Virus record (IMG/VR): IMGVR_UViG_3300048904_000202
Span: 132,007 to 164,476 of that record
Origin: a virus
Taxonomy: Duplodnaviria > Heunggongvirae > Uroviricota > Caudoviricetes
DNA length: 32,470 nucleotides
Strand: one strand, 5' to 3'
In this document: positions 1,206 to 7,183 of the stretch, in pieces
Position numbering within the stretch: the first letter of the stretch is position 1
How the letters are laid out: every line of letters starts with the position of its first letter
Notes under the pieces: generated by a model
Database searches by the model: none
What the model saw: the letters and a program-made list of their open reading frames with translations, nothing else
What the model was told of the DNA's origin: nothing
Position numbers and translations under genes: made by a program

Positions 1206-1340
1206 GTAAGGTTAACGAAAACAGCGAGCGCGTTAAGGTTGACGAGTAGTAAGGTTAACGATCCGGTTAAGGTTAACAAATATTAAGGTTAACGATCCAG
1301 TTAGGGTTAACGAGTGGTAACCCTAACGGATATGGTTAAC
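1206..1340. repeat. TTAAGGTTAAC array: three 34-bp units, each made of 16+18-bp subrepeats
   Basis: Units start 1233, 1267, 1301; TTAA-like doublets at 1206, 1233, 1249, 1267, 1283, 1301, 1317. Confidence 0.85.
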
Positions 1341-1356
1341 AAATTCACGGCGAATA

Positions 1357-1436
1357 TTAACTATCTTTCTCGTGGACTCGTGCTGGACTATCCCCTAGAC
1401 CGTGATTGCGCCGATTCGCGGCGCGGGAGACACAAC
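1357..1436 (+). promoter_or_regulatory. Early cassette promoter-leader A
   Basis: TTAA 1357, CTCGTGGA 1369, TGGACT-N17-TAGACC (1373/1396), hairpin GCGCCG-ATTCG-CGGCGC from 1408, SD GGGAGAC. Confidence 0.75.
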
Positions 1437-1805
1437 ATGCAAGTTTTCAAACGCCTTTCCGCCGCACTCAAAGCCGCAGGTGACGGCCCTTATCTCCGTA
1501 TCGGAACCGGTAACGATAAGCTCTACATCGTCGGTATCGAAAGCCATACCGGAATTGAGCTTGTCAGCGAAGTGAAGCCTCCCAAAGGCTCGCAAACAAC
1601 CGGCTCGCGCCTCATTTCCGGGCAAGTTCTTCTCGGACATCTCGACCGGCTGGGTAACGCCAACAGCGCGGCGGCCGCTCGCCTGAATCGGGAACCTACG
1701 TTCCGTCAAGCTGGTCTGTCGCAAAACTTCATGCGCGAAGCTGACCGCGAAGATTACGAGACCATGTGCCAAGCCGAAAAAGCGAAACAGGCGGAGATCG
1801 CGTAA
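1437..1805 (+). CDS. Hypothetical early protein, 122 aa (MQVFKRL…)
   Basis: ATG behind conserved GGGAGAC SD; start re-called from the track ORF 1314..1805. Confidence 0.8.
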   Translation: MQVFKRLSAALKAAGDGPYLRIGTGNDKLYIVGIESHTGIELVSEVKPPKGSQTTGSRLISGQVLLGHLDRLGNANSAAAARLNREPTFRQAGLSQNFMREADREDYETMCQAEKAKQAEIA

Positions 1806-2056
1806 TGTACGTCATCCGTCACAGCATCACCGGCAACGCCATATCGTCGCATCTATTCGAGATGACCGCAAAAGACCTTCGCGAGGCGCAAGCGTCCGAT
1901 ACGTACGATATCGAGGCGAACACGGGCGACGGCGTGTTTCACGAACACGTCACCGCCGAACGCGCACACCGCCATGTCAAACAGGGCCGCATACATTCAA
2001 CGCCGCTCTATATCGACGATCGCGGACGCATCCGCTACGCGCGGGACGGTTACTGA
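1805..2056 (+). CDS. Hypothetical early protein, 83 aa
   Basis: TAATG stop-start overlap with the upstream gene. Confidence 0.75.
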   Translation: MYVIRHSITGNAISSHLFEMTAKDLREAQASDTYDIEANTGDGVFHEHVTAERAHRHVKQGRIHSTPLYIDDRGRIRYARDGY

Positions 2057-2286
2057 TGCAGCGCGTAGAGATCGCACGGGGCGGCGGATTCGCCCTTATC
2101 AGCATCGGTAACGGGTGGGCCTATGAACTGGGCTGCAACGGCGCCAGTGGGACAATTTTCGTCCAAGGTGACGACGCAACCCAGTTTCGCGAGGAATGGG
2201 ACGCGCTGGAGCAAGCGAAGCCAGACACCCACACAACCGCGCTACTGCGCGAGATGTGGGACCGATATGCGGAGATCGCTAGTTGA
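2056..2286 (+). CDS. Hypothetical early protein, 76 aa
   Basis: TGATG overlap; FVQGDDA motif. Confidence 0.75.
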   Translation: MQRVEIARGGGFALISIGNGWAYELGCNGASGTIFVQGDDATQFREEWDALEQAKPDTHTTALLREMWDRYAEIAS

Positions 2287-2354
2287 TTGGCGCGATCGGG
2301 CGACTCATCTGTGGGCTGTTCCTGATACTCATCGCGGGCGCCTTCATTCTCTAA
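2283..2354 (+). CDS. 23-aa hydrophobic microprotein MIGAIGRLICGLFLILIAGAFIL
   Basis: TTG start overlapping upstream TGA, GGAG at 2271, ends just before terminator; paralog at 6423-6494. Confidence 0.65.
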   Translation: MIGAIGRLICGLFLILIAGAFIL

Positions 2355-2357
2355 CCC

Positions 2358-2383
2358 GGCGGGCCACGGCCCGCCTTTTCTTT
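2358..2383 (+). terminator. Intrinsic terminator
   Basis: GGCGGGC-CACG-GCCCGCC then TTTTCTTT. Confidence 0.85.
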
Positions 2384-2399
2384 ACCCGGTAACCGGTCG

Positions 2400-2518
2400 T
2401 TAACCTTAACAAAATCGCCTCAGTCCATTAACCATCTAACTCGTGGGCCATTGTTGACTCCTGCTGGCGATTCAGCGTAGATAACTCCTACACCGATTCG
2501 CGGTGTGGGAGACACGAC
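2400..2518 (+). promoter_or_regulatory. Early cassette promoter-leader B
   Basis: GTTAACCTTAAC, TTAACCAT 2428, CTCGTGG 2440, TTGACT-N18-TAGATA, 9-bp hairpin with ATTCG loop, GGGAGAC. Confidence 0.8.
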
Positions 2519-2659
2519 ATGCAAGTAACTGTTACCATCCCGGCGAGCGTACAGGCCGCCAAAATCGCGGCACGCGCCGCGCCGACCATGGCGGAAGCCG
2601 CTCGCATCTACTGCGACGCTCTGCGTAGCGCTAAGCTGCCTCTCCCGGTGATCCGGTGA
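2519..2659 (+). CDS. Hypothetical early microprotein, 46 aa (MQVTVTIPAS…)
   Basis: ATG directly behind conserved SD; below the ORF-track size cutoff. Confidence 0.75.
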   Translation: MQVTVTIPASVQAAKIAARAAPTMAEAARIYCDALRSAKLPLPVIR

Positions 2660-2733
2660 AGGCCCGCGCTCGCAAGCGGGCGGACCGCATCGCGGCGCTC
2701 TCGCGCTGGATCATGAAGGGACGGAAGGGCTAA
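2656..2733 (+). CDS. 25-aa Arg/Lys-rich peptide MKARARKRADRIAALSRWIMKGRKG
   Basis: GTGA overlap; fills the gap exactly up to the next gene's RBS. Confidence 0.5.
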   Translation: MKARARKRADRIAALSRWIMKGRKG

Positions 2734-2736
2734 GCC

Positions 2737-3207
2737 ATGACCACCAAAAAAGCTCAAAAGGCCGCTGAAATCGCGGAAGCGATAGAATCGCTGCGCAAGC
2801 TGATCAAGCCGGGCGACACGATTTATTGCGTCCTGCGGTCGCGCTCCTCGTCGGGCATGTCGCGGGTTATCGACCTGCTTATTCCCTATCGGGAAGTCAT
2901 TACCGAATATCCGCCACTCCCGGCCGATAAGGCGGAATATCCGGGACAACGCGATTACAACGCAAAGCCCAAAACCAAAGCGGGCAAGCTCCGTATTCGC
3001 TCGATCGGCTGGACCGCTTCGAAAGCTATGGAGCGGACTCACGACTCGGATAAGGGAGGTATTTCCATCGCTGGTTGTGGGATGGATATGGGCTTTGCCC
3101 TCGTTTACGATCTGGGGCGTACGCTTTACCCGAAGGGCGCGAAGGGAAGCGCCCTCAGGGAAGGACAGAAAGACGGCGGGTACGCTTTCAAACACGAATG
3201 GCTTTGA
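2737..3207 (+). CDS. Hypothetical phage protein, 156 aa (KPGDTIYCVLR…SGMSR; GCGMDMGFALVY motifs)
   Basis: Clean ORF, purine-rich RBS, followed by terminator. Confidence 0.85.
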   Translation: MTTKKAQKAAEIAEAIESLRKLIKPGDTIYCVLRSRSSSGMSRVIDLLIPYREVITEYPPLPADKAEYPGQRDYNAKPKTKAGKLRIRSIGWTASKAMERTHDSDKGGISIAGCGMDMGFALVYDLGRTLYPKGAKGSALREGQKDGGYAFKHEWL

Positions 3208-3210
3208 CTG

Positions 3211-3237
3211 GGAGGGCTACGGCCCTCCTTTTCTTTT
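3211..3237 (+). terminator. Intrinsic terminator
   Basis: GGAGGGC-TACG-GCCCTCC then TTTTCTTTT. Confidence 0.9.
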
Positions 3238-3252
3238 GCGCAGAACTCTTCG

Positions 3253-3361
3253 TTAAGGTTAACCGCCGGCCGGAAACCGTTAACCGTCTATCTCGTGGAA
3301 TATTGCTTGACCCGACTCGTGGACTCGGTCTAGACCCTGATTCGCAATTGGGAGACGCAAC
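3253..3361 (+). promoter_or_regulatory. Early cassette promoter-leader C
   Basis: TTAA at 3253/3259/3280, CTCGTGGA 3292 and 3317, TTGACC-N18-TAGACC, TG-ATTCG-CA, GGGAGAC. Confidence 0.75.
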
Positions 3362-3523
3362 ATGTGCCTGACAGTGAAAAAGTCCCGCGACGGTAAGACC
3401 ATCATGGTTTCTCGCAACGGACGGTTTGACGTGTCGCAGCGTGACGGGCGCGGCGACTGGGTTCGCAAGCTCGAACAGGTTTCGCTTGGCGAAGCCGAGT
3501 CGTTCATGCGTTTGCATCCGTAA
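3362..3523 (+). CDS. Hypothetical early protein, 53 aa (MCLTVKKSRDG…), paralog of 4254-4457
   Basis: ATG behind conserved SD; sequence similarity to 4254-4457. Confidence 0.75.
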   Translation: MCLTVKKSRDGKTIMVSRNGRFDVSQRDGRGDWVRKLEQVSLGEAESFMRLHP

Positions 3524-3534
3524 GGGGAGGGGCC

Positions 3535-3690
3535 GTGTTGTTCGCTACTCGCACCAAGCTGGCTTGGTTTACCGTCGTGACGACGTTGCGGACGTTCCGC
3601 CTCGAAGCGGCGGACCTCGCGACCGCGACCGAAACCGCGTCGCATATCATCATTTCCTGTATCGAAACCGTAGTGGAGGTAAAACCATGA
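3535..3690 (+). CDS. Hypothetical protein, ~51 aa (GTG 3535 or TTG 3538)
   Basis: GGGGAGG RBS at 3524-3530; ATGA overlap with the next gene. Confidence 0.6.
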   Translation: MLFATRTKLAWFTVVTTLRTFRLEAADLATATETASHIIISCIETVVEVKP

Positions 3691-3884
3691 TCCAGATCAT
3701 TGAGTCCAACATGTCGCGCCGCACCGTCATCGCGACCGCGCCCGATTTCGCCGCTGCCAAAGCGAAGGTTGAGGCGATGGGTGTCGCCTACATGGAGGAT
3801 GACGCCGATCACGCCGATTGCGCTGACGCCTACACAAATGACGGGCGCGTCATCGCGATTCAGCCCGAAGGGTTCAAGCTGTGA
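3687..3884 (+). CDS. Hypothetical protein, 65 aa (MIQIIESN…)
   Basis: GGAGG RBS, ATGA overlap. Confidence 0.75.
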   Translation: MIQIIESNMSRRTVIATAPDFAAAKAKVEAMGVAYMEDDADHADCADAYTNDGRVIAIQPEGFKL

Positions 3885-4093
3885 AGCTGGAGCCCGTAAC
3901 CGTTCGCCTAGAATTAGATCGGGCAAGCCTTAATCGCTATCTAGGCAACGTCGAAAGCGTGCCTTTAGAGACGGCCGTAGCGGAGCTTTTGGGCAATCTG
4001 CTAGGTGAGTTGCCTTTCTATTGCGAGCGTTGCGGGACGGCGCATCAAGAGGATACCGGAATCAAAGGACGGTTTGAGATCATGGAAAGCTAG
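3881..4093 (+). CDS. Hypothetical protein, 70 aa, with CxxC (CERC)
   Basis: GTGA overlap; ends at terminator. Confidence 0.7.
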   Translation: MKLEPVTVRLELDRASLNRYLGNVESVPLETAVAELLGNLLGELPFYCERCGTAHQEDTGIKGRFEIMES

Positions 4094-4118
4094 GAGGTCC
4101 GCAAGGCCCTTCCTTTTT
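4093..4118 (+). terminator. Intrinsic terminator
   Basis: GGTCC-GCAA-GGCCC stem with extension, then TTTTT. Confidence 0.7.
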
Positions 4119-4133
4119 GGCGGTAACTGGAGG

Positions 4134-4253
4134 TTAACCTTAACGAACGGCCGCGAATCGTTAACCATCTAACTCGTGGACTCAGTGTTGACTCGTGGAC
4201 TCGACTCGGGCATTAAGGTGCTACGCCGAGTCGTGGCGTATGGGAGACACGCA
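4134..4253 (+). promoter_or_regulatory. Early cassette promoter-leader D
   Basis: TTAA 4134/4140/4161, CTCGTGGA twice, TTGACT 4188, six GANTC sites, hairpin TACGCCG-AGTCG-TGGCGTA, GGGAGAC. Confidence 0.8.
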
Positions 4254-4457
4254 ATGAATACCGTTCGCAAGAGCCCCGATGGAAACATCATGATCGTACA
4301 GCGTCCTAGCGGCTATGCCGTCTCGACCCGTGCGCCGCACTGGAACCCCGGAGATTCCATTCGCATCATCGGCGTGCAAACGCTGGAATGGGCAACGGTC
4401 GCAAAAGGCTTGGACCTCAGCGCCGCAACCGCCATGTTTGACAAGCTGGCAGCCTAA
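4254..4457 (+). CDS. Hypothetical early protein, 67 aa (MNTVRKSPDG…), paralog of 3362-3523
   Basis: ATG behind conserved SD; start re-called. Confidence 0.8.
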   Translation: MNTVRKSPDGNIMIVQRPSGYAVSTRAPHWNPGDSIRIIGVQTLEWATVAKGLDLSAATAMFDKLAA

Positions 4458-4469
4458 GGAGTCCTAACA

Positions 4470-5027
4470 ATGCCTGAGTTCATCGCGGATACAGACGGGA
4501 CCGTAAATGGCATGTCGTTTGACGACCTGTCAGACATTTTTCAGGGCTACGTTGAAGCCATGCTTTTCACCGAAACTTGCAGCGGTATCAGCATGGTCGA
4601 TTGGAACGACCCGAAAAACGTCGAGGATGTCGAGGAAGGGCGCGCCGATGGAAGCATCCCGACCGACGCCGGATGGGGCGACATTCATCCCAACTCGGCG
4701 GAGCGCATGCAACTCGATTGCTTCAATTTCGAGGTTGAAGCTCGCGACCTGTTGGCGCAAGCCTATCGCCATACCTTTCCAGCCCGCACGATCGGCGACG
4801 GGACGTTGCCTGATAGTCACCGCGAAGCATGGGACTATGACGCGAAAGCGGCCGGCCGCGACTTTTGGTACACCCGCAATGGTCACGGTGTCGGTTTCTG
4901 GGATCGTGGACTCGGCGACATTGGCGACAAGCTAGCGGAGATTGCCCGCAAATATGGAACGGTAAACGTGTCGTTCGGCCCGGATGAAAGCTCACCGACC
5001 GGTTACGGATACGTCTACGCGGAATGA
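4470..5027 (+). CDS. Hypothetical phage protein, 185 aa, acidic, DFWYTRNGHGVGFWDR motif
   Basis: AAGGAG RBS, clean ORF, terminator after. Confidence 0.85.
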   Translation: MPEFIADTDGTVNGMSFDDLSDIFQGYVEAMLFTETCSGISMVDWNDPKNVEDVEEGRADGSIPTDAGWGDIHPNSAERMQLDCFNFEVEARDLLAQAYRHTFPARTIGDGTLPDSHREAWDYDAKAAGRDFWYTRNGHGVGFWDRGLGDIGDKLAEIARKYGTVNVSFGPDESSPTGYGYVYAE

Positions 5028-5033
5028 AGGGGA

Positions 5034-5062
5034 GGGGCTGGGCAACCGGTCCCTTTCTCTTT
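5034..5062 (+). terminator. Intrinsic terminator
   Basis: GGGGCTGG-GCAA-CCGGTCCC then TTTCTCTTT. Confidence 0.75.
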
Positions 5063-5077
5063 GCTGGTATGCACTCA

Positions 5078-5206
5078 TTAACGTTAACGAACGTGTCCGA
5101 TCTGTTAACCAAACAAAAAGAGGTCTAACTCGTGGACTCATGTTGACTCAGCACGTGGACTCGTCCATCACTTTCCTACGGCGACTCGCGCCGTGGGAGA
5201 CACAAA
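5078..5206 (+). promoter_or_regulatory. Early cassette promoter-leader E
   Basis: TTAA 5078/5084/5105, CTCGTGGA 5129, TTGACT 5143, 9-bp hairpin with ACTCG loop, GGGAGAC. Confidence 0.8.
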
Positions 5207-5332
5207 ATGCGTATTACTTTCGAGGTGAAACCGGGTAACAAGCTGGGCAAGCGGATCGACCGCGCCGACAAGCGCGACCGTCGCGAGCAGCGCCGGGCGA
5301 AGGAAGCCCGCCAGCGTTTCTTTCACGCCTAA
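5207..5332 (+). CDS. 41-aa arginine-rich peptide MRITFEVKPGNKLGKRIDRADKRDRREQRRAKEARQRFFHA
   Basis: ATG behind conserved SD; stop abuts the next RBS. Confidence 0.75.
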   Translation: MRITFEVKPGNKLGKRIDRADKRDRREQRRAKEARQRFFHA

Positions 5333-5345
5333 GGAGGGCGACACA

Positions 5346-5831
5346 ATGGAAGCTCAGTTCCGCAATATCGACATCAAGGGACCGCAGCGCGTCAAGTTCC
5401 AGTGGCGTCGCGAAACGCCACGCGATGAAACGTCCGACCGTCCAGACGAACGCGATGATGGTTTCTGGCCGTCGCTCAACCCGGAAGAAGCCGGCTATAT
5501 CGGCGACGCCGAGCCGTCCGACGTTGATGGCGCTGCACAGCAAGCCCGCTACGACTCTGCGCTGGCAGCCGCTGAAAAGCGTATGGAAGCATGGGAAAAT
5601 GACGAATGGGAGTTCGTCGGTGTCGTCGCCGTCGCGGAAGTCGCTATCCCTATTGGTGGTGGGTCCTACGCCCTCCACACGTTCCGCTCGCCGGGCGTTT
5701 GGGGCGTGGAAAGCGATGCGGGAGATTATCTTGACACGCTCTATGTAGAGCAAAAGGCCGAGTTGCTTGCACAACTCCGCACGCTGGGCGCGGCGCTTGG
5801 TCAACCCGCCGACTTCGACGAGGAAGGCTGA
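5346..5831 (+). CDS. Hypothetical phage protein, 161 aa, acidic (EWEFVGVV…GVWGVESD)
   Basis: AAGGAGG RBS, terminator after. Confidence 0.85.
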   Translation: MEAQFRNIDIKGPQRVKFQWRRETPRDETSDRPDERDDGFWPSLNPEEAGYIGDAEPSDVDGAAQQARYDSALAAAEKRMEAWENDEWEFVGVVAVAEVAIPIGGGSYALHTFRSPGVWGVESDAGDYLDTLYVEQKAELLAQLRTLGAALGQPADFDEEG

Positions 5832-5838
5832 AAGGCGA

Positions 5839-5862
5839 GGGGGCGGGGAAACCCGCCCCTTT
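5839..5862 (+). terminator. Intrinsic terminator
   Basis: GGGGCGGG-GAAA-CCCGCCCC-TTT. Confidence 0.8.
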
Positions 5863-5867
5863 CGTGG

Positions 5868-6006
5868 TTAACGATAAAGGCCTACAGGTTAACCTTAACA
5901 AACCGACCTAAATCATTAACCATCTGACTCGTGGAATTATGTTGACCCGACTCGCGGACTTCGCCTAGACAGGTATTGTACCGATTCGCGGTGCGGGAGA
6001 CACGAA
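5868..6006 (+). promoter_or_regulatory. Early cassette promoter-leader F
   Basis: TTAA 5868/5889/5895/5916, CTCGTGGA 5928, TTGACC-N18-TAGACA, hairpin TGTACCG-ATTCG-CGGTGCG, GGGAGAC. Confidence 0.8.
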
Positions 6007-6426
6007 ATGCATAACGCCAAAATTCAACCGGCTTGGGCTCAATTCATCAAGCGCGACCAAACGGAAAACCGCGTCGCGTTCGTCGCCGCGCTCCTGATGG
6101 AACGCGTTCCACTGGCGCAATCTAAGCGAGCGATCGAGAAAGGGGATGATTTCAAGCTTAGGTCGCATATCGCCGAGGGCTTCGCCGTCGAGTTGTCGCG
6201 GCTTGCGCGCGCCATTAAGCGCCACGCTGAGAATGCGTGCAATCGCGAAGTGTCGGAAGCCGAGGAAGCGCGCGACGCCAAGAATCAGGCCCGTTTCGCT
6301 GCGATTGCCTCAGCGCTTGGTTTCGAGGCCCGCACCGGCGGCGATCCTCGTGGCGCGTGCGCCTACTTGATCGATCCAGATGACCGGAAGGGGGATGGCT
6401 GGGGCGAAGGCTGGGCGGTCTATTGA
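6007..6426 (+). CDS. Hypothetical early protein, 139 aa (GGDPRG motif)
   Basis: ATG behind conserved SD. Confidence 0.85.
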   Translation: MHNAKIQPAWAQFIKRDQTENRVAFVAALLMERVPLAQSKRAIEKGDDFKLRSHIAEGFAVELSRLARAIKRHAENACNREVSEAEEARDAKNQARFAAIASALGFEARTGGDPRGACAYLIDPDDRKGDGWGEGWAVY

Positions 6427-6494
6427 TATCCGCCCTAGCGCGCCTTTTCGGCGGACTTTTCCTAATCCTACTGGCTAGCGCCTTTCTGCACTGA
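6423..6494 (+). CDS. 23-aa hydrophobic microprotein MISALARLFGGLFLILLASAFLH
   Basis: TTGA overlap; 14/23 identical to 2283-2354; precedes a hairpin. Confidence 0.65.
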   Translation: MISALARLFGGLFLILLASAFLH

Positions 6495-6504
6495 GCCCAA
6501 ATCT

Positions 6505-6532
6505 AGGCCGGCGCCAACGCGCCGGCCTTTCT
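6505..6532 (+). terminator. Probable intrinsic terminator
   Basis: AGGCCGGCGC-CAAC-GCGCCGGCCT then TTCT. Confidence 0.7.
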
Positions 6533-6623
6533 ATGTGCCTGCCACATGGGTTAACACAGCACCATGAACTATTAACCAGATTTGTTCGTAGACTGGTAAG
6601 GTGACAAGCCATAAACTGGGCGC

Positions 6624-6800
6624 ATGGAAACGACGACTCACCACATAACAGCGGCCTTGCGGGACAAGCGCATTGCGCAGATCATGAAAAGAGAAGGCTT
6701 CGACTATCTCGGCGCTTACCGCCGCGATCAAGCAAGGCAGGCTGTCAACGCCACGCTACGCGCTGCGCCACGTTGTGCCTCAATCAACATGTGCAAATGA
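6624..6800 (+). CDS. Hypothetical protein, 58 aa (METTTHH…), probably leaderless
   Basis: No SD, but TAGACT-N17-TAAACT (6589/6612) places the start site at about the ATG. Confidence 0.5.
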   Translation: METTTHHITAALRDKRIAQIMKREGFDYLGAYRRDQARQAVNATLRAAPRCASINMCK

Positions 6801-6807
6801 CGTGCTA

Positions 6808-6889
6808 CTCGTGGAAGATACGTGGAATATGACTTGACCGAATCGATACGACTCGTCTATAAACGAATCACTGATTAGGGAGACACGAC
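6808..6889 (+). promoter_or_regulatory. Early cassette promoter-leader G (divergent copy)
   Basis: CTCGTGGA 6808, TTGACC-N18-TATAAA, three GANTC, GGGAGACACGACATG. Confidence 0.75.
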
Positions 6890-7183
6890 ATGACCAACGC
6901 AATGCCCGCTTTCACTGTCCTAGTTAACAAGCTGGCTATCGGTCGCGTTAGCGCTGTATCGCACGCACAAGCGATGACCCGTGCCCGCGCCCTTGCCCGC
7001 GCCGCTGGCCACGCCCGGTTCGAGATCGAGGCGGAAGGCAACGTCACCCTTGACCGCGCCGCACGCACCAATTTCAGCCGCTCCGATACGTCCTATAGCG
7101 CGGGCCGCGCCCCCTACGCCACGCCGGGCTTTGAAGAGCGCCGCGCTGCTATGATAGCAGCCTATAAGGCGGGCGCGCTCTAA
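6890..7183 (+). CDS. Hypothetical early protein, 97 aa, Ala/Arg-rich
   Basis: ATG behind conserved SD; strong terminator after. Confidence 0.8.
   Translation: MTNAMPAFTVLVNKLAIGRVSAVSHAQAMTRARALARAAGHARFEIEAEGNVTLDRAARTNFSRSDTSYSAGRAPYATPGFEERRAAMIAAYKAGAL

Follow-up and report, generated by a model that had tools for sequence, protein, structure and literature searches.

What is the short inverted repeat that recurs in front of early genes of this phage: a signal in the RNA, a signal in the DNA, or both? The window (the whole stretch of DNA analysed, 32,470 nucleotides of the 164-kb genome of a soil phage of the Caudoviricetes) contains seven early cassettes, c1 to c7, which share one plan: a terminator, TTAAC-type boxes including TTAACCAT, a promoter, and small genes with no assigned function, with a terminator-like hairpin at the end of each cassette. 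A sequence-only reading of the window had proposed that a hairpin with an ANTCG loop precedes each early gene. All six sequences that it quoted were found where it had placed them, and the proposal holds for the first gene of five of the seven cassettes, but not for cassettes c3 and c7. In these five, the hairpin has an ANTCG pentaloop on a stem of 6 bp, whose return arm is 6 nt long:

1408–1424, plus strand: hairpin of c1, GCGCCG-ATTCG-CGGCGC; box CGATTCG, with its centre at predicted +8
2490–2506, plus strand: hairpin core of c2, ACACCG-ATTCG-CGGTGT
4223–4239, plus strand: hairpin core of c4, ACGCCG-AGTCG-TGGCGT, with a G·U closing pair
5178–5194, plus strand: hairpin core of c5, ACGGCG-ACTCG-CGCCGT
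5978–5994, plus strand: hairpin core of c6, GTACCG-ATTCG-CGGTGC, with one U·G pair

Complementarity extends beyond the core: the c4 hairpin has 7 bp across 4222–4240, and in the DNA of c2 and c5 pairing spans 2485–2511 and 5172–5200, respectively, including GGGAG and GGGAGA of the Shine-Dalgarno sequence (SD). In RNA folding, the hairpin was the centroid structure for the copies at 1408, 2487, 4222, 5175, and 5977, with energies from −8.9 to −20.2 kcal/mol; no hairpin was obtained for the copy at 3338 or for the seventh cassette, at 6878. A flanking stem of at least 7 bp is found at 6 of the 438 GANTC sites of the genome, and five of the six are these hairpins; the set is well beyond chance.

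The motif had not been recognised as a described one, and it is indeed absent from Rfam: a search of the window gave no matches at the gathering score, and when E values up to 1 were admitted for positions 1300–7000, the only two matches were unrelated and lay on terminators. The hairpin is not itself a terminator, as no U-tract follows it. It was also considered as an extended CGANTCG palindrome, i.e., a binding site for a dimeric DNA-binding protein. This was rejected as well: the dyad of the hairpin is the T after N, the dyad of the box lies one base off, and the arm sequences vary.

The location of the hairpin relative to other leader elements is fixed. A scan for E. coli-type promoters returned no sites here, and promoters were therefore assigned from a recurring alphaproteobacterial-type motif, TTGAC-N17/18-TAnAnn. 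The −10 and +1 assignments are thus predictions that rest on the recurrence of this motif across cassettes. The elements are:

1373–1401, plus strand: promoter-like element of c1, TGGACT-N17-TAGACC
2454–2483, plus strand: promoter-like element of c2, TTGACT-N18-TAGATA
4188–4216, plus strand: promoter-like element of c4, TTGACT-N17-CATTAA
5143–5171, plus strand: promoter-like element of c5, TTGACT-N17-CATCAC; the ortholog on phage contig L251 has the same −10
5942–5971, plus strand: promoter-like element of c6, TTGACC-N18-TAGACA
1425–1439, plus strand: SD of c1, GGGAGACAC-N3-ATG; the same module starts at 2507, 3350, 4242, 5195, 5995, and 6878

When the five copies are anchored on the loop, the order is the same in each: a −35 element, 17 or 18 nt, a −10-like hexamer, a 6-nt discriminator, a purine that is the first base of the 6-bp stem, and ANTCG, followed by the 6-nt arm, a gap of 0–2 nt, and GGGAGACAC-N3-ATG. 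The hairpin-to-promoter distance is constant: in all five copies the stem starts at the seventh nucleotide past the −10 hexamer, which is the predicted transcription start. Leaders of about 25 nt leave a hairpin no place that is not close to both the start site and the SD, so that its position directly at the 5′ end is in part imposed by leader length.

The five stems differ in sequence, and in the core they pair at all 30 of 30 cells (28 Watson–Crick and two G·U pairs, all non-Watson–Crick pairs being G·U on the sense strand). When three copies from a second phage contig, L258, were added, 47 of 48 stem cells paired, L258 contributing one further G·U pair and the sole A·C mismatch, and four of the six pairs showed two-sided changes. 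The covariation score of this eight-copy set was 0.673, compared to 0.207 ± 0.065 in shuffled sets, none of 500 of which scored as high; slid controls reached at most 0.167. The stems had been called fully covarying, which overstates the case: within this phage, covariation is seen at three of the six pairs of the core, and the inner C-G/G-C pairs are nearly invariant. A model built from the eight copies found the c6 ortholog of L258, on which it had not been trained, with an E value of 0.006, and had no other match in the 164-kb genome. A base-paired structure is thus supported both by the pairing itself and by the compensatory changes among the paralogs and in L258.

Could such repeats arise without any function, as by-products of cassette duplication and of quasi-palindrome template-switch correction at a palindromic site? 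The copies do group by sequence, c2/c4/c5 on one side and c1/c6 on the other, and turnover is fast, the hairpin being absent from a c6 ortholog whose protein is still 84% identical. Against this, pairing is maintained in 47 of 48 cells although the sequences have diverged, at least three of the two-sided changes are independent, and the position relative to promoter and SD is constant in five cassettes and in the second phage. Leader hairpins with differing sequences are, moreover, found throughout the clade. We consider an origin without function extremely improbable.

In L258, the same hairpin is present in four of four cassettes. Its c6 ortholog keeps CGATTCG 11 nt past the −10 element, but has a 6-nt loop, a different closing pair, and a different stem, while the DNA heptamer and its distance to the −10 element are unchanged; the 3′ arm overlaps the GG of the SD. 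Every c5 ortholog seen has a leader hairpin; in two of them, whose orthology was confirmed by the gene pair, the loops are unrelated to that of the window: CCGGC-ACGGA-GCCGG in L251 and GCCGAA-CGG-TTCGGC in L254. About one-third of the relatives' cassettes carry unrelated hairpins of 4–6 bp that start at predicted +1 to +3 and mostly end 2–4 nt short of the SD. GANTC lies in or at the loop, in varying registers, in five of five hairpins of the window, four of four in L258, two of three in L262, and in single cases in L251, L254, and L211. Protein P0010, 76% identical to the L258 protein, is carried by four contigs.

Three pattern scans of IMG/VR revealed no further phage with the hairpin, only a 100% identical fragment of the present genome (L162) and a weak look-alike (L221). 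Of the 119 IMG/VR matches to CGANTCG-N3-10-GGGAGACAC, all had stems of 0–3 bp apart from two, one of which is a fragment of the phage studied here. When IMG/VR and a metagenome set were searched with proteins, only more distant relatives were obtained. Four DNA runs provided no variants for comparison: their matches were either short and unrelated or low-depth fragments identical to this phage. The runs that contain the sequence are root metagenomes, none of them RNA.

The conserved part of the hairpin matches a known type of DNA site. Six of six leader heptamers fit the GcrA box YGAKTCK on one strand (CGATTCG three times, TGATTCG, CGAGTCG, and CGACTCG); the published consensus is TGATTCG/YGAKTCK (PMC4647560). 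In the 45 nt before GGGAGACRC, GANTC is 15-fold and YGAKTCK 41-fold denser than elsewhere, and the enrichment of YGAKTCK extends to leaders that have no hairpin. The box is centred at predicted +8 in the five hairpin copies, with further GANTC sites at −18/−19 and at −27 to −32. In the two remaining cassettes, and in most relatives, a box is kept in the discriminator:

3338–3344, plus strand: box TGATTCG of c3, in the discriminator, centred at about −2 as in relatives, without a hairpin
6864–6870, minus strand: box TGATTCG of c7 (CGAATCA on the top strand), centred at about −3, without a hairpin

As had been claimed, variation of the loop is confined to the N of GANTC, which differs (C versus T) between near-identical c5 orthologs. 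The fit to the box and the enrichment support GANTC being a selected DNA site.

GcrA boxes are reported to be active at −20 ± 1, −30 ± 2, or +5 to +30, with the PmipZ boxes at +4 and +12 (PMC9976885). The phage leaders resemble Caulobacter σ70 promoters that respond to GcrA, such as PmipZ (PMC4647560, PMC9976885), in having a YGAKTCK/YGAKTCG CcrM site a few nucleotides past the start, which in the phage is a predicted one, and additional GANTC sites near −20 and −30. They differ in driving phage early rather than host cell-cycle genes, in that a covarying hairpin has the box in its loop, and in that their methylation and dependence on GcrA are presumed; furthermore, the boxes at −2/−3 (c3, c7, and relatives) are outside the published positions. 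Neither GcrA nor an N6/N4 methyltransferase is among the proteins of the phage, which would therefore rely on those of the host; we take the host to be an alphaproteobacterium possessing CcrM and GcrA, by analogy with the relatives Lacusarx and phiCbK (PMC9437464). The CtrA-box-rich early (terminal-repeat) cassettes of the phiCbK-like phages, Lacusarx, and Cp1R7A-A1 described in that work belong to the same clade and follow the same plan. A PSSM scan of phage genomes reported there found GcrA sites without positional bias, and neither a GcrA positional signal nor leader hairpins were described, whereas in our phage GANTC/GcrA-type boxes are the most enriched leader element.

An invariant loop and two invariant closing pairs on a covarying outer stem are also what would be expected of an RNA operator, in which the G-ANUCG-C loop is the recognition surface of a sequence-specific phage or host RNA-binding protein, on the model of boxB/N antitermination, an ANTAR target, or a coat-protein translational operator. 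Control of read-through would be useful where a terminator-like hairpin ends each cassette, and c5 encodes an arginine-rich 41-aa protein that is conserved in relatives; a PDB sequence search with this microprotein gave no match and no detectable homology. As in the lambda nut boxB, a small stem carries a pentaloop within the early leader of a phage operon that has a terminator at its end, but the loops (AUUCG, AGUCG, and ACUCG) are not of the purine-rich, GNRA-like GAAAA type, and their register is not kept in the c6 ortholog. No N homolog was identified, nor did Pfam and PHROGs assign a function to any of the ten early proteins tested. The ANTAR lead stems from a 35-aa “ANTAR domain protein” annotated in the homologous region of Lacusarx. 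Its match, the sole one, is sub-threshold (16.6 bits versus a cut-off of 27.3), and the first-gene proteins of c2 and c5 in the window gave no match. ANTAR targets are dual hexaloops, and relatives do often have A-first hexaloops, some with G at position 4 (AACGGA, AATGAA, AATGAC), but here there is a single hairpin without terminator overlap, and the loops in the window are pentaloops.

Several observations made above speak against an RNA operator: the only variable loop position is the N of GANTC, orthologous hairpins of relatives have unrelated loops, and the same heptamer is enriched in hairpin-free leaders. Because the loops of relatives are unrelated, and because the c6 ortholog of L258 has the box in the same position without the pentaloop, we argue that the loop is conserved for a DNA signal and not for an RNA-binding protein, and regard an RNA operator as unlikely. 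The proposed dual use of the element is upheld as far as the RNA stem and the DNA GANTC are concerned, while a protein-bound loop is unlikely; the place near +6, the location at the 5′ terminus, and any protective role depend on the predicted transcription start.

Alternatively, the inverted repeat may act as a DNA structure that extrudes GANTC, or leaves it unpaired in the non-template strand of the initial bubble, and so favours CcrM or modulates promoter escape. CcrM recognises its site by strand separation and methylates single-stranded as well as double-stranded DNA (PMC10359602), and the presence of GANTC in or at the loop in several registers in the window, L258, L262, L251, L254, and L211 fits this. 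However, each sense-strand G·U is an A·C mismatch on the other strand, making a cruciform imperfect; 6-bp stems are short for extrusion; and in many relatives the box is outside any repeat. Co-location is, in addition, what would be expected of any necessary site for which room has to be found in a leader of 25 nt taken up mostly by the hairpin. An effect of DNA structure is, in our view, very unlikely. That co-location is itself the mechanism, either with an extrudable or unpaired site physically coupling the methylation state of the incoming phage DNA to early promoter escape through a DNA hairpin or with a protein reading GANUC in the nascent RNA, appears quite improbable.

The long complementarity in c2 and c5 raises yet another question, namely whether the hairpin is a translational gate. 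If transcription started a few nucleotides upstream of the predicted site, an extended stem would hide the SD, as in an RNA thermometer or a factor-opened structure, and would set differing outputs per cassette. In c2 and c5 the stems run into the discriminator and the SD over 11–12 bp (−19.8 and −20.2 kcal/mol; z about −5), and in c1 and c6 the first two G of the SD are engaged in two U·G pairs; the overlap of the L258 c6 arm with the SD points the same way. In contrast, the SD is left free in c4, and hairpins of relatives mostly end upstream of it. The extension occupies the 6 nt between the −10 element and predicted +1, which are probably untranscribed. With the predicted start at the first base of the core, the extension would have no use, a point against the explanation favoured below. 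The TCCTAC arm common to c2 and c5 may, moreover, reflect a single duplication event. A gate of this kind seems very improbable.

A 5′-terminal stem-loop stabilises mRNA, according to Emory, Bouvet and Belasco 1992 as cited in PMC3997798 (ref. 95). The ompA and papA stem-loops share with the phage hairpins a short stable structure at the first nucleotide (predicted in the phage), just 5′ of the SD, that is conserved by structure and not by sequence; they differ in that the phage 5′ end is a predicted one, and in that five phage paralogs have in common a loop that would at the same time be a DNA methylation site.

The explanation that we favour, with somewhat better than even confidence, is that two independent signals are superposed in the same 17 nt downstream of five early promoters of the host σ70 type: a stem-loop at the predicted 5′ end that would act in translation or mRNA stability, and, at about +8, a CcrM/GcrA box. 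At the RNA level, the transcript would begin at the first base of the stem and carry a 5′-terminal stem-loop ending 0–2 nt before the SD. This stem-loop most likely would shield the early mRNA from 5′-end-dependent decay of the RppH/RNase E type, and keep the SD context defined. At the DNA level, CGANTCG, formed by two inner stem bases and the loop, would be a CcrM site of the high-affinity GcrA-box type. Together with the upstream GANTC sites, it would make early transcription dependent on host GcrA–RNAP and on the methylation state of the incoming DNA.

A leader hairpin and what is probably a host cell-cycle promoter signal thus share 17 bases in five early operons. The hairpin is a compact, mutable test object, in which mutations can be directed at the stem (RNA) or at the loop (DNA box) independently, to learn what each adds to early expression. 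It also carries a caution for RNA motif discovery, as a conserved loop on a covarying stem can result from a constraint at the DNA level and need not point to an RNA-binding partner. Were co-location the mechanism, phages would have a novel means of matching early gene expression to the cell cycle of the host. Reading of CtrA, a cell-cycle regulator of the host, is already assumed for relatives of phiCbK and Lacusarx; our results suggest that such phages also read the CcrM/GcrA methylation switch, at the published position downstream of the transcription start.

The viral contig is 164,476 bp long, and the window forms its last 32 kb; among named phages, Sphingobium phage Lacusarx and the Caulobacter phiCbK group stand closest to it. 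Seven cassettes (c1–c7) of small genes with no recognisable function lie between window positions 1300 and 6900, and are built on one common plan, from 5' to 3':

Terminator-like hairpin
GTTAAC-type boxes, TTAACCAT among them
ACTCGTGGA box
TTGAC-N17/18-TAnAnn
Short leader
GGGAGACRC-N3-ATG

The box, ACTCGTGGA(C/A), is located ~10–15 nt upstream of each −35 (window positions 1369, 3292, 3316, 4173, 4192, 5129, 5928, and 6808), and is repeated inside some spacers. The same box occurs in L258, a related metagenome contig, and GTGGAAAA is found in its place in the L211/L254 group of related contigs; it could act as an UP-like element or as an activator site. Upstream of early promoters, GTTAACCTTAAC or GTTAAGGTTAAC is followed by TTAACCAT, a CtrA half-site motif, at these window positions:

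2399-2435
4133-4168
5888-5923
1206-1340

This arrangement agrees with published descriptions of early regions rich in CtrA boxes in this phage clade (PMC9437464); the full TTAA-N7-TTAAC site is absent (0 occurrences) from the whole genome. Two adjoining repeat arrays, seen by eye at 1001-1340 directly upstream of the first cassette, contain 'gaacagcg..gccatttt' boxes and TTAAGGTTAAC doublets, respectively.

The six sequences that the sequence-only reading had quoted as hairpins in front of early genes were all found at the positions it gave. Its proposed structure was the centroid fold of five of them (stem starts at 1408, 2487/2490, 4222/4223, 5175/5178, and 5977/5978), while the copy at 3338 did not fold; no hairpin fold was obtained for the seventh cassette (SD at 6878). 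For three copies, the z-scores of single-sequence folding were not remarkable, since GC-rich 43-mers fold in any case. The positional evidence that the hairpins exceed chance is strong: a flanking stem of at least 7 bp is present at 6 of the 438 GANTC sites in the genome, and five of those six are the leader hairpins. Aligned at the loop, all five copies have the same layout. A −35 is followed by a 17/18-nt spacer, a −10-like hexamer (TAGACC, TAGATA, CATTAA, CATCAC, or TAGACA), and 6 nt; then come a purine, the 6-bp stem, the ANTCG loop, the 6-nt arm, 0–2 nt, and the SD. All 30 core cells are paired (28 Watson–Crick and two G.U), with two-sided changes among the paralogs at three core positions. 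Extrusion of such a hairpin at the DNA level could aid CcrM, which works through strand separation and accepts ssDNA (PMC10359602); we consider this very improbable, given the short stems and the G.U pairs on the sense strand.

In c2 (2485-2511) and c5 (5172-5200), the discriminator (CTCCT and TTTCCT) is complementary to the SD, which lengthens the DNA inverted repeat to 11–12 bp. This complementarity suggests that the hairpin could occlude the SD; such a role is quite improbable, since c4 lacks the extension and the extended part comes before the predicted +1. If transcription starts at the predicted place, the extension has no explanation.

Contigs of related phages were reached through homologs of the first c6 gene. 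One of them, the 4,954-bp L258, has the same promoter type, and each of its four cassettes has a hairpin whose loop contains GANTC. The stem of the c5 ortholog is identical to that in the window, and the loop N is T, not C; in the c4 ortholog, the stem is closed by G-C where the window has G.U, and there is one A.C mismatch; the fourth cassette has the stem TGCCCG/CGGGTA; and in the c6 ortholog both stem and loop differ, the latter being 6 nt long (GATTCG). In the eight hairpins that share one register (five from the window and three from L258), 47 of 48 cells are paired, and two-sided changes occur at four of the six pairs. The exact hairpin type was found in two phages only, and the c5 and c4 orthologs, as close relatives, are not fully independent. 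The covariation score was 0.673, compared to 0.207 ± 0.065 in shuffles (reached by 0 of 500) and at most 0.167 with a slid partner. A covariance model built from the eight copies recovered the L258 c6 ortholog, on which it was not trained, at E 0.006, and gave no additional match in the whole 164-kb genome and 15 further loci. That the hairpins are a neutral by-product is extremely improbable, as neither the near-complete pairing nor a geometry that is fixed in two phages fits this reading well.

The pattern CGANTCG-N3-10-GGGAGACAC, which does not require pairing, had 119 matches in IMG/VR with stems of 0–3 bp, apart from two: a 100% identical fragment of the same phage and one other match. 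An unrelated IMG/VR contig (L221:10511-10535) contains GGCCG-ATTCG-TGGCC immediately 5' of GGAGGGAGA-N7-ATG; it scored 18 bits (E 0.046) with the covariance model and may be a chance look-alike.

The GANTC (GcrA-type) box is independent of the hairpin. All six leader heptamers match YGAKTCK, the published GcrA consensus, whose best site is TGATTCG (PMC4647560). Within the 45-nt stretches that precede GGGAGACRC, GANTC and YGAKTCK are 15 and 41 times denser, respectively, than in the rest of the genome, a count that includes a second, other-strand promoter class without the covarying hairpin. In c3, c7, and most cassettes of relatives, it is the discriminator that contains the box (cGAATCa). A natural experiment is provided by the c6 pair: between the window phage and L258, stem sequence and loop size differ, while CGATTCG and its −10 spacing (11 nt to the G of GANTC) are unchanged. 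The dyads of the hairpin and of CGANTCG are offset by one base, so the stem is not simply an extended CGANTCG palindrome.

Counted from the predicted +1, the GANTC sites fall into clusters at +8, −18/−19, and −27 to −32. These predicted positions appear close to those of functional GcrA boxes, reported at −20 ± 1, −30 ± 2, and +5 to +30, those of PmipZ lying at +4 and +12 (PMC9976885). In the work that established CtrA boxes for this clade of phages, no positional signal was reported for GcrA sites (PMC9437464). The phage genome encodes neither GcrA nor an N6/N4 methyltransferase. GANTC is under-represented in the whole genome (438 observed, ~592 expected from base composition) and peaks in the early region at 14–18 sites per 2 kb, a pattern typical where the host has CcrM. 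The second promoter class, outside the window on the minus strand (G000:C1:79404-117661, at least 11 copies), has the plan TTGAC-N..-TAAGATTYGTCC-TAsAC-GATTCG-N8-ACGAATCA-GGGAGACAC and probably drives middle genes. Its GANTC sites occupy the discriminator, a position at ~−19, and one immediately 5' of the SD; the 5' arms of c2 and c5 (CCTAC) are similar to its −10 (CCTAsAC).

The leader hairpin is, in turn, independent of loop sequence. Cassette c5, recognised by an Arg-rich 41-aa gene followed by a 150–160-aa gene, has a leader hairpin in every relative seen, with differing sequences: CCGGC-ACGGA-GCCGG after the same CATCAC −10 in contig L251, GCCGAA-CGG-TTCGGC in L254, and GCTGC-AACGGC-GCAGC in Lacusarx. 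Across L254, L211, L010, L212, L011, and Lacusarx, about one-third of cassettes have a 4–6 bp hairpin that starts at the predicted +1 to +3 and whose loop is unrelated to GANTC. In L254, L211, L010, and L212 these are mostly hexaloops starting with AA (AATCAA, AATTCC, AACGGA, AATGAA, AATGAC, and AATCAC), and stems flip between paralogs (in L254, CGGCG-AATCAC-CGCCG vs CGCCG-AATGAC-CGGCG). A c6 ortholog with 84% identity at the protein level (L252/L253) has CCG-AAA-CGG only, which points to fast hairpin turnover.

Recognition of the hairpin by a loop-specific RNA-binding protein is unlikely: ortholog loops are unrelated, the register changes in c6, and the loop N behaves exactly like the N of GANTC. 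In its favour are an encoded Arg-rich microprotein and, in Lacusarx, an ANTAR-like match that falls below threshold. The former, a 41-aa protein (window 5207-5332) with a DKRDRREQRRAKEARQR stretch, matches no family and no PDB entry; its L258 counterpart is 93% identical, and it is also conserved in L251, L254, Lacusarx, and contig L260; its gene is always first in the cassette, preceded by a leader hairpin in every relative with a leader examined. The latter, Lacusarx LAV_00214 (L009:5440-5547), is annotated as a 35-aa 'ANTAR domain protein'; its match to Pfam ANTAR covers 22 of 54 positions and reaches only 16.6 bits, against a cut-off of 27.3. No ANTAR match was obtained for the c2 and c5 first-gene proteins, the two window proteins scanned.

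On balance, we favour two superposed signals, a DNA-level CcrM/GcrA box and an RNA-level leader stem-loop. The sequence comparison itself establishes the hairpins with their covariation and the box with its consensus, enrichment, and constant spacing; the start site, methylation, dependence on GcrA, and mRNA stabilisation are inferred. Each layer has a known counterpart, in GcrA boxes downstream of transcription start sites and in 5'-terminal stem-loops, respectively; the hairpin matched no Rfam family, and no description of GANTC-loop leader hairpins was found in the literature. The stem-loop would extend from the first transcribed base to the SD, and would be of the type that protects mRNAs against 5'-end-dependent decay, an effect attributed to 5'-terminal stem-loops (Emory et al. 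1992, via PMC3997798). The loop would appear conserved because a required site that is not freely base-pairable must fit into a ~25-nt, mostly hairpin leader, and would thus be placed in the loop. At the DNA level, the upstream GANTC sites and a GcrA box near +8, methylated by CcrM, would jointly couple early transcription of the phage to the host GcrA–RNAP and to methylation state.
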